DNA from: a virus
Lineage: Duplodnaviria; Heunggongvirae; Uroviricota; Caudoviricetes
DNA length: 46,456 nucleotides
Virus record (IMG/VR): IMGVR_UViG_2563366990_000004
Strand: one strand, 5' to 3'
Every line of letters begins with the position of its first letter. Position 1 is the first letter of the stretch. The notes under the pieces were generated by a model. That model searched no databases and was not told where the DNA came from. It saw nothing but the letters and a program-made list of their open reading frames with translations. Positions 14,348-15,406 of the stretch are shown here, in pieces. Both the position numbers and the translations under genes were made by a program.

Positions 14348-14701
14348 TTATTTGGTGCTAATACATGATTTAATTCCCTGAATCCTCTTGCTTTTCCCAT
14401 TGGTGGGGTCTAAGACTCCTCGAAGGGAATAAAAATCAATGATAGTAGAACCATCTGCCAACTTATAAATGTCGGCATTATCTCCAACCGCTAATACGCT
14501 GTAATACTTGCCAATTTTTTGAGACGTGATAGTGGCTAAGAGAGGTGTACGCTGCCACTCACTGAGAATGCATTCTTGTATTTCTTGTGGTGGAGAATTT
14601 GTTTTAAACGAGATAATAACATTTTGTTCTTCTCTGTAGTTATAAGGGTTGACGCATCCTGAAATTGCAAAAACCAATAGAAAACAAATTGTTTTATTCA
14701 T
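14348..14701 (-). CDS. Lipoprotein of unknown function
   Basis: 117 aa, signal peptide with lipobox (LVFAISGC); in a visibly AT-rich segment. Confidence 0.55.
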   Translation of the reverse strand: MNKTICFLLVFAISGCVNPYNYREEQNVIISFKTNSPPQEIQECILSEWQRTPLLATITSQKIGKYYSVLAVGDNADIYKLADGSTIIDFYSLRGVLDPTNGKSKRIQGIKSCISTK

Positions 14702-14762
14702 TTAGAAGCCCTTTTATAAGTATTTCTTGGTTATTTAAGTTTTTTGTTAGTGAAAATATAAA

Positions 14763-15062
14763 CTATAAAAAGTCAGATTCATAACTTTGCCCTCCATGGT
14801 AAACGCCAGCGATAAAGACTTTATTGCCATCAACGGCAAAAGCAATGATCGTTCTGTGGCGGAAGTGAGTTACCCGCATTCCCTGTCGAATATCATCGCG
14901 TTTATTGCCCCGATGCGGGAATGTGGAAAAACCATCAAGATAATCAAGAAGCGCGTTGGCATAATTGTCAGCAATGGCGCTCCCTGCCTTCTCTGTTATA
15001 TATCTGTGCAGGTTGATTATCTGCTGTTCGGCCTCAGAAGTAATGATGACTTCATACGTCAT
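14763..15062 (-). CDS. parE: ParE/RelE-family type II toxin
   Basis: Internal ATG at 15062 gives MTYEVIITSEAEQQI…HRGNKRDDIRQGMRVTHFRHRTIIAFAVDGNKVFIAGVYHGGQSYE, a ParE-type product; 5 nt downstream of the antitoxin stop. Confidence 0.75.
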   Translation of the reverse strand: MTYEVIITSEAEQQIINLHRYITEKAGSAIADNYANALLDYLDGFSTFPHRGNKRDDIRQGMRVTHFRHRTIIAFAVDGNKVFIAGVYHGGQSYESDFL

Positions 15063-15067
15063 GCAGA

Positions 15068-15325
15068 TTACTTCCCGGCTCGAATCGCGGCGCGAACCTG
15101 TGAAATGGAGCGTCCGTTGTTTGGGTTTTCGCGGATAGAATCGAGAGATGGGGCGGCTGAATGCGTTAACCACGCTTCGATTGCTTTATCGCGCTCATTC
15201 AGTGCGCGAAGCCCTTCACGAATGACCTCACTTTCTGAAGCATAGGCACCGGAAGCCACACGGGCGCGCACCATGTCAGCCATCTCGTTAGTTAATGTAA
15301 TGCTGAATTGTTGGGTTGTACGCAT
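15068..15325 (-). CDS. parD: ParD-like antitoxin (ribbon-helix-helix)
   Basis: ATG at 15325 with GTGAGG RBS gives MRTTQQFSITLTNEMADMVRARVASGAYASESEVIREGLRAL…, a ParD/CopG-type RHH antitoxin directly upstream of parE. Confidence 0.7.
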   Translation of the reverse strand: MRTTQQFSITLTNEMADMVRARVASGAYASESEVIREGLRALNERDKAIEAWLTHSAAPSLDSIRENPNNGRSISQVRAAIRAGK

Positions 15326-15406
15326 GGTAAACCTCACGGAGTAGGATAGAACACTATTCGATGATAGCACACTGCCTGTTGACGACACCAGAAATCAGAT
15401 ACAATA

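Follow-up and report, generated by a model that had tools for sequence, protein, structure and literature searches.

Positions 14348–15325 of a 46,456-nt phage sequence (Caudoviricetes; IMG/VR record IMGVR_UViG_2563366990_000004; the whole stretch is called here the window) hold three minus-strand genes that follow each other in the order parD, parE, and a lipoprotein gene (Table 1). We are fairly inclined to explain this locus as a canonical ParD–ParE toxin–antitoxin (TA) pair joined by a phage moron, the lipoprotein gene, which would be expressed by read-through from parDE and whose product would play a role at the cell envelope. The same layout had been proposed in an earlier note on this DNA, made from the sequence alone, and both its coordinates and the placement of the lipoprotein gene after parDE on the same strand (14348–14701) are reproduced here. 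The unity of the three genes implied by that note had to be given up, as parDE mostly occurs without the lipoprotein gene, while relatives of the latter lie in or beside phage tail modules, or at two Serratia loci where no tail genes were detected, and never by parDE.

Among 5426 complete Escherichia coli genomes, the parDE cassette was found in 365, always on the chromosome, and the lipoprotein gene in seven, each time 61–62 nt downstream of parE. The carriers of the lipoprotein gene are mostly Shiga-toxin-producing or animal-associated E. coli, and the parD–parE–lipoprotein order, represented by two alleles, is kept in all of them (7/7 genomes and 6/6 E. coli-type IMG/VR contigs). Such constancy of a gene directly downstream of parE could suggest a single functional system with ParD, ParE, and the lipoprotein as its three components, a reading that we regard as highly improbable. 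Of the 328 E. coli genomes in which most of the cassette is present, at least 321 lack the lipoprotein gene, none of the ~25 relatives examined outside the E. coli type has parDE nearby, the lipoprotein gene and parDE are unlike in GC content and synonymous divergence, and their products belong to separate compartments, the periplasm and the cytoplasm, respectively. On its distribution, a three-component ParD–ParE–lipoprotein system was rejected. Since nearly all examined relatives outside E. coli sit with tail genes, and none beside parDE, a functional link between the lipoprotein and ParDE very probably does not exist.

The GC content is 36.7% in the lipoprotein gene, 48.7% in parDE, and 51.8% in the whole window. 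Synonymous divergence between the window and the prophage carrying the second allele (L009) is 0.76 for the lipoprotein gene, 0.37 for parE, and 0.085 for parD, an approximately ninefold spread. As both characteristics differ among the three genes, these genes have different histories, and their grouping is a product of mosaic recombination rather than a functional unit. AT-richness is limited to the lipoprotein gene and the 61-nt spacer that separates it from parE, where the GC content of 150-nt segments drops to 27–31%; hence, the “AT-rich island” described earlier holds for this part of the locus and does not extend to parDE.

The borders of the acquired segment are sharp. According to BLAST, homology to a prophage without the lipoprotein gene (L002) ends exactly at the parE stop codon (14764) and restarts at 13875. 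The lipoprotein gene is present or absent among related phages (7 genomes vs 365 with parDE), has sharp junctions, and differs in GC content from its surroundings (36.7% vs 51.8%), as is characteristic of morons. The remaining feature, its own promoter and terminator, was not seen, as no promoter-like or terminator-like site flanks the gene in the window. These characteristics reportedly go back to the definition of Juhala and Hendrix. The third gene would thus be a mobile phage moron outside the TA system, whose product is a small PHROG 914 lipoprotein that probably contains a disulfide bond, and in a rare E. coli lineage a copy lacking a recognizable promoter and terminator would have recombined in exactly at the parE stop codon.

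Sequence and Predicted Structure of the Lipoprotein

Low divergence at non-synonymous positions demonstrates that the lipoprotein gene is a real gene: 36 synonymous and 19 non-synonymous sites distinguish the two E. coli alleles (dN/dS 0.09). The same value rules out positive selection on the gene.

The N-terminus of the protein, MNKTICFLLVFAISG/C, is a standard signal peptide with a lipobox and the cleavage context AISG/C; written as MNKTICFLLVFA-ISGC, it satisfies the lipobox pattern [LVI][ASTVI][GAS]C (PMC11893012). In an alignment of 40 family members, all sequences have Cys16, and at least 90% have Gly15. Two further cysteines, C44 and C113, are invariant as well, giving together with Cys16 three invariant cysteines. 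Sorting of lipoproteins is governed by Asp at position +2, its absence directing the protein to the outer membrane. Because this position is occupied by Val in the window protein, the latter is predicted to go to the outer membrane; Asp is not found here in any aligned family member. In the AlphaFold2 model (pLDDT 85.5), the protein forms a small α/β domain with the order β-α-β4-α, and C44 and C113 reside in its two helices, so that a C44–C113 disulfide is likely according to the model.

The earlier note had left the lipoprotein without a function, and the homology search agrees with that: the sole family match is phrog_914 (1.2e-27), which carries no functional label. Searches of the protein against Pfam, NCBIfam, and PADLOC yielded no match, and a Pfam search with the 40 family members returned nothing except one lipid-attachment motif. 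Fold searches retrieved only generic small α/β domains, e.g., Flpp3/DUF3568, the N-terminal domain of BamC, and DcrB. The family is small: when 1.84 billion representative proteins were searched exhaustively with a profile, 45 clusters of relatives were recovered. No experimental work on the lipoprotein was found in the literature search.

Relatives of the Lipoprotein in Other Phages

Relatives outside E. coli have 48–60% identity to the window protein, with some more distant members. Judging by the neighboring genes, these family members are almost always situated in or just after phage tail modules. In particular, J or other tail genes lie just upstream in 16 out of 16 non-E. coli-type IMG/VR loci. 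The relatives occupy several positions. In Rahnella, as well as in one metagenomic phage, the gene separates M from L, and in Serratia it separates the tail chaperone gene from that of the tape measure. In Pantoea and at a locus with a sopAB-type partition pair, it lies downstream of J and the fibre-assembly genes. The K–I interval is used in coliphage HK140, Bordetella phage PHB09, and a Klebsiella phage. Coliphage mEpX2 has the same gene as HK140 at a similar map position, and a distant member is present in a Pseudomonas phage. At the sopAB-type locus, the gene stands between the tail fibre genes and the partition pair (matches to PF18090 and the ParA family), an arrangement that we take to be that of N15-like plasmid prophages.

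Detection of the phage members depended on the query. A tblastn search with the window lipoprotein found no match in the phage collection, and a search with P0010 found none in plasmids; HK140, mEpX2, and the phages of Klebsiella, Bordetella, and Pseudomonas were reached only with P0024, which is more central in the family.

Two of these positions are known moron slots. In HK022, the annotated moron gp20 is encoded between K and I. HK97 gp15, the earliest moron to be described and a protein with a proven role in exclusion (PMC3594210), is encoded between the chaperone and the tape measure.

Two copies in Serratia fonticola (L021, 6001–6345; L023, 5995–6345) lie outside recognizable tail modules. 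One of them is located ~550 nt after icd, a classic site of prophage attachment, and immediately precedes a fimA-papD-usher operon; the other one adjoins a fimbrial subunit gene. These copies may be prophage remnants or domesticated genes.

Transcription of the Lipoprotein Gene

The RNA fold of the spacer is no better than that of shuffled sequence (z = 0.48), and our scan found neither a terminator-like nor a promoter-like site in its 61 nt. In three prophages (L002, L007, and L008), a native parE terminator, GATCCCCGAC...GTCGGGATC followed by T6, is situated ~95 nt after parE. This terminator was sought in the window and is absent, and the block 13876–14763 stands in place of the ~124 bp that contain it in prophages without the lipoprotein gene. 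Given the shared strand, the unstructured, terminator-free spacer, and the lost parE terminator, transcripts from the parD promoter should enter the lipoprotein gene. Read-through is plausible because the native terminator has been replaced by the block, and co-transcription of parDE and the lipoprotein gene seems to us somewhat better founded than separate transcription. By displacing the terminator, the insertion would have brought the lipoprotein gene under the parDE promoter and would have led to its read-through expression in lysogens. The operon of three genes proposed in the earlier note therefore stays plausible for the same reasons, although this part of it is deduced from the sequence.

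Upstream of parD, a possible extended −10 element, TGcTATCAT (15361–15369, minus strand), and a putative GAGG ribosome-binding site (15332–15335, minus strand) can be discerned by eye. An operator-like inverted repeat was looked for in this region and not found.

Two observations speak against read-through. Firstly, the consensus scan detected no promoter upstream of parD either, so that a weak promoter of the lipoprotein gene within parE or the spacer may have been missed. Secondly, the next strong hairpin after the lipoprotein gene (14251–14272), which has a perfect 9-bp GC-rich stem (GGCGAGGGA-TTTC-TCCCTCGCC), is not followed by a U-tract on either strand, and we consider it a candidate terminator based on the sequence.

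Alternatively, the lipoprotein gene could be transcribed independently, from a promoter of its own located in the AT-rich spacer or at the 3′ end of parE, and be only a neighbor of parDE. An own promoter is a classic feature of morons (PMC3594210), and the relatives in tail modules have 56–785 nt of upstream non-coding DNA and terminators of their own: for the five inspected ones (from Rahnella, Serratia, Pantoea, and two metagenomic sequences), a GC-rich hairpin directly follows the gene in 5/5 cases, with a T-run in 4/5. The window copy has neither such a hairpin directly after the gene nor the long upstream non-coding DNA. Moreover, the spacer, as its sequence indicates, travels with the lipoprotein gene and not with parE. 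On the other hand, no site matching at least 9 of 12 promoter positions was found on the minus strand of 14702–15325, although the scan, which missed the parD promoter and is hence insensitive to a weak one, gave promoter and terminator counts no different from those in shuffled sequence and is too insensitive to decide whether the genes form an operon. The spacers of the two alleles (61 nt in the window and 62 nt in L009) have no BLAST-detectable similarity and share no −10 or −35 element recognizable by eye, and with the parE terminator removed, parDE transcripts should reach the lipoprotein gene anyway. On balance, independent transcription appears to be the less probable arrangement by a clear measure, and we proceed with read-through from parDE.

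Possible Function of the Lipoprotein

The lipoprotein most likely acts at the cell envelope of the lysogen, since it is a predicted outer-membrane lipoprotein, probably with a disulfide, its gene behaves as a moron, and its relatives are repeatedly found beside tail-tip and receptor-binding genes. It would alter the lysogen envelope, and our leading guess is that it blocks the entry of superinfecting phages. By analogy, exclusion would be the best-precedented role, the precedents being Llp of T5, Cor, Lpp of the mEpimmI phages, and factors of small siphoviruses. In mEpimmI phages, lipoprotein genes in structural clusters mediate exclusion (the Lpp proteins; PMC11893012), and in small siphoviruses exclusion factors are encoded beside receptor-binding genes (PMC11990801). 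Family members are also found in the moron slots of HK022 gp20 and HK97 gp15.

Several facts pull the other way. The relatives adjoin tail-tip and fibre genes, while the window copy is in the nin region, far from the tail genes; morons of tail modules may have other roles, as Bor and Lom of lambda do (PMC3594210); and relatedness to the exclusion protein Cor was rejected, as hhalign aligned only 26 signal-peptide columns and found no similarity of the mature domains. Superinfection exclusion is thus a tentative assignment, put forward by analogy and short of an even chance, and it is the least secure step of our explanation. The earlier note had already named exclusion as a possibility, which the location of the relatives by tail-tip and fibre genes supports only indirectly.

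The idea that the lipoprotein is a host-fitness or virulence factor, providing serum resistance, adhesion, or protection against colicins or envelope stress, draws on the same lambda morons, of which Bor is an outer-membrane lipoprotein (PMC3594210), on the prevalence of Shiga-toxin-producing or animal-associated strains among the carriers, on the S. fonticola copies without recognized tail genes, which lie beside fimbrial genes, one of them just after icd, and on the resemblance of the fold to generic bacterial lipoprotein domains (Flpp3/DUF3568, the N-terminal domain of BamC, and DcrB). It agrees less well with the lack of a Pfam match for the lipoprotein and with how tightly the family is linked to tail-tip and fibre genes in siphophages infecting Enterobacterales and Bordetella, at a position where exclusion factors are known to cluster (PMC11990801; PMC11893012). 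We deem it unlikely, and less so exclusion, which remains our preferred candidate among specific envelope functions.

A more specific proposal is that PHROG 914 is a new family of outer-membrane lipoproteins for superinfection exclusion, acting by receptor masking or by blocking entry in the periplasm and encoded beside siphophage tail-tip genes, and that the rare E. coli copy was grafted onto the parDE transcript. Taken as a whole, this proposal is rather doubtful. If it is true, the autoregulated TA promoter would supply steady expression of the lipoprotein in lysogens, and the family would normally be encoded in siphophages infecting Enterobacterales, distant members being present in Pseudomonas and Bordetella phages.

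Within the locus, only the lipoprotein is unusual, being a member of a catalogued but uncharacterized small family, with a confidently predicted fold and an association with tail genes across several genera. It is therefore a well-defined and cheap candidate in the search for new factors of exclusion or envelope conversion.

The ParD–ParE Pair

The earlier identification of the pair as ParD–ParE is corroborated by matches in Pfam, TIGRFAM, and PHROG and by the PGAP annotation. ParD matches PF03693 (1.5e-7, 32.1 bits with the cut-off of 21), TIGR02606 (1.2e-14, 54.1 bits with the cut-off of 46.2), and phrog_6494 (1.3e-56), and its N-terminal residues 6–51 align to the ribbon-helix-helix domains of solved ParD antitoxins (PDB: 3kxe, 7b22, 8c24, and 5ceg). 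ParE has a full-length match to PF05016 (2.2e-9, 38.2 bits with the gathering cut-off of 23) and matches phrog_5232 (3e-41). The two PHROG families are dedicated ones, labelled antitoxin and toxin, respectively.

Although the identity of ParE to any solved ParE is only 14–22%, its AlphaFold2 model (pLDDT 89.3) has ParE-type toxins as all of its best 23 Foldseek matches in PDB (TM-score 0.72–0.85, E ≤4.8e-4), all of them toxins partnered by ParD, PaaA2, PrpA, or PfiA. A profile built from ParE relatives likewise retrieves only ParE toxins among PDB sequences. By these family, PHROG, PDB-profile, and model matches, the assignment is secured at the levels of both sequence and fold, and we hold the pair to be ParDE with high confidence. 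The gene is under purifying selection (parE dN/dS 0.06–0.15).

Two negative results count against this picture: none of ParD, ParE, and the lipoprotein matched a PADLOC defence model at E ≤1, and no experimental work on this prophage ParDE cassette was found in the literature. It could also be argued that the 99-aa toxin is a RelE-like ribosome-dependent mRNA endonuclease rather than a gyrase poison, as both PF05016 and the PGAP name “RelE/ParE family” span the two activities and no NCBIfam model matched the toxin. This is very unlikely, given that 23 out of 23 best structural matches and every match of the PDB sequence profile are ParE-type toxins, that RelE, YoeB, HigB (HigB2), and YafQ rank below them with weak matches (E >2e-3, in Foldseek ≥4.9e-3; TM-score 0.5–0.6), and that the partner of the toxin belongs to the ParD antitoxin family.

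If the pair works like the ParDE systems studied so far, ParD would bind the promoter of its own operon via the ribbon-helix-helix domain and neutralize ParE, and free ParE would poison DNA gyrase; gyrase poisoning, neutralization, and autoregulation are thus attributed to this pair from its family. The module would thereby stabilize the prophage or serve in conflicts among mobile elements. The pair is a member of a well-known family in an already annotated context and as such adds nothing new.

Within the second of these roles, parDE might be directed chiefly against phages or competing elements (abortive infection) and only secondarily stabilize the prophage, and the two roles may coexist. 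This would fit the company of higBA and hok/sok in prophage accessory slots and the modularity of the slot, in which O157 prophages carry parD, another small gene, and higA. In Pseudomonas, a ParE-like prophage system, PfiT/PfiA, whose structure 9w3a is among the matches of the toxin model, reportedly controls phage production (PMC7264888). The absence of PADLOC matches for the parDE proteins and of experimental reports on this cassette argues against it, and we find such a predominant function improbable.

The two genes of the pair differ in conservation. Compared with four related prophages (L002, L007, L008, and L009), parD of the window has 97.7–100% nucleotide identity and parE, 89.6–94.6%; synonymous divergence is 0.00–0.09 and 0.17–0.42, respectively. 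Higher conservation of parD suggests either recombination breakpoints inside the operon or a role of parD as a conserved recombination anchor.

O157:H7 prophages (L046 from E. coli O157:H7 ATCC 43889, 1300–2277) retain from the cassette only its parD half, which is followed on the same strand by a 90-aa gene without annotated function and a gene of the higA antitoxin family. This layout may explain the “orphan ParD and HigA antitoxins” of the EHEC phages phi346 and phi349 (PMC12502783), and the 90-aa protein could be an unrecognized toxin. As a hotspot of recombination, the slot that follows parD or parE holds parE, a small gene with higA, or parE with the lipoprotein gene, depending on the prophage, which is relevant to prophage annotation.

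According to a pangenome study, E. coli tends to acquire a RelE/ParE toxin gene (192 genomes, 130 gains), and likewise three ParDE-family groups, before quinolone-resistance mutations arise (PMC10575684).

Organization of the Locus and Its Surroundings

The window represents a lambda-like E. coli prophage, and parDE lies in its nin region, oriented leftward and opposing the phage early transcript. The three leftward genes are flanked by the rightward hok/sok module on one side and by the rightward DUF968–RusA–Q genes on the other. The gap between the parD stop and the parE start is 5 nt.

Mechanically delimited open reading frames (ORFs) are longer than the genes of the TA pair (106 and 136 aa), and the trimmed internal-Met starts suggested earlier coincide with those used by PGAP in NZ_AP042583 and with RefSeq starts in related E. 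coli prophages. NZ_AP042583 contains the closest locus among complete genomes (L001), which lies in a Stx2-converting prophage and has 97% identity over the 2-kb query and 99.7–100% identity in the three genes.

Table 1. Features of the parDE–lipoprotein locus and other toxin–antitoxin genes of the window.
Feature	Position	Strand	Description
parD	15068–15325	−	Ribbon-helix-helix antitoxin, 85 aa; stop codon 15068–15070; PF03693, TIGR02606, phrog_6494
parE	14763–15062	−	ParE-fold toxin, 99 aa; ATG 15060–15062; PF05016, phrog_5232
Spacer between parE stop and lipoprotein ATG	14702–14762	−	AT-rich, 61 nt; AAGGG ribosome-binding site 7 nt before ATG
Lipoprotein gene	14348–14701	−	117 aa; PHROG 914 family; predicted outer-membrane anchor
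Divergent control region between parD and rightward 92-aa ORF	15326–15460		Putative; read by eye from the sequence
Hairpin between convergent hok and lipoprotein genes	14251–14272		Candidate stop for both transcripts; sequence and RNA fold
Mosaic block with sok/hok and lipoprotein cassette	13876–14763		BLAST junctions vs L002 at 13875 and 14764
hok/sok type I toxin–antitoxin module	13916–14241	+	hok 14086–14241; RF01794 110.8 bits, PF01848 4.3e-23; converges on lipoprotein gene
higB	5874–6176	+	PF09907, 1.6e-32
higA	6179–6538	+	HTH_3

The higBA pair is intact and lies beside the immunity region, adjoining a leftward repressor-like gene (6585–6983). Of the claim that the prophage carries three TA modules of different types, the number holds, as higBA, hok/sok, and parDE represent three modules and three families; the types are only two, higBA and parDE both being type II.

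The 92-aa ORF at 15461–15739 (plus strand) is conserved, diverges from parD, and adjoins the DUF968 gene directly; the control region of 135 nt is common to it and parD. Its product is a hypothetical protein in PGAP and has no Pfam match. Downstream of the Q antiterminator gene, at 18571–20434 (plus strand), the window has a DNA methylase gene (PF01555) and a gene for an AraC-family regulator (HTH_AraC, HTH_18), with neither tRNA nor stx genes in this interval; the counterpart in the NZ_AP042583 prophage has Ile and Arg tRNA genes and stx2. That prophage also contains a PemK/MazF-family toxin gene just after Q (L001, 10227–10628), with no annotated antitoxin adjoining it, and an IS66 insertion in the early region.

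Comparison With Known Systems

We compared the TA pair with canonical ParD–ParE systems, namely, ParDE of RK2, ParDE1 of Caulobacter (3kxe), ParDE3 of Mesorhizobium (5ceg), ParDE2 of Vibrio (7r5a), and ParDE1 of Mycobacterium tuberculosis (8c24). As in these systems, an antitoxin with an N-terminal ribbon-helix-helix domain is encoded just upstream, here with the 5-nt gap, of a ParE-fold toxin of ~100 aa, and the window proteins match the same Pfam and TIGRFAM families. Unlike them, the window module, known from sequence and a structural model, resides in the nin region of a lambda-like prophage, not on a plasmid or a chromosomal island.

The toxin is also similar (TM-score ~0.8) to other prophage ParE-fold toxins, those of PaaR2–PaaA2–ParE2 from E. 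coli O157:H7 (5cw7) and PfiT/PfiA from Pseudomonas Pf4 (9w3a). PaaA2 is an intrinsically disordered antitoxin without a DNA-binding domain and requires the third gene, PaaR2, as a regulator. In contrast, the window antitoxin is a genuine ParD that itself carries a ribbon-helix-helix domain, and the product of the third gene is an exported lipoprotein, not a regulator.

Cor (phi80, N15, and HK022) and Llp (T5) are outer-membrane lipoproteins that block FhuA for superinfection exclusion. Like them, the window protein is a small phage-encoded lipoprotein with extra cysteines, and its relatives occupy the same neighborhood, adjoining tail-tip and fibre genes. Differences from Cor are the length of the mature protein (101 vs ~60 residues) and the predicted β-α-β4-α fold, and, unlike both Cor and Llp, the window copy is located in the nin region rather than in the tail region.

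Relatedness to HK022 gp20 was rejected (hhalign probability 0.1%). Family members nevertheless occupy the same slots as HK97 gp15 and HK022 gp20, that is, between the chaperone and the tape measure (Serratia) and between K and I (HK140, the Klebsiella and Bordetella phages, and, judging by map position, probably mEpX2), and resemble these morons in being lower in GC than the DNA around them and in having terminators of their own. Unlike the window protein, HK97 gp15 belongs to the inner membrane and is not a lipoprotein. In contrast to classical morons of tail operons, the window copy has lost the self-contained moron architecture, and the locus illustrates mosaic recombination turning a self-contained moron into a passenger of a TA operon.

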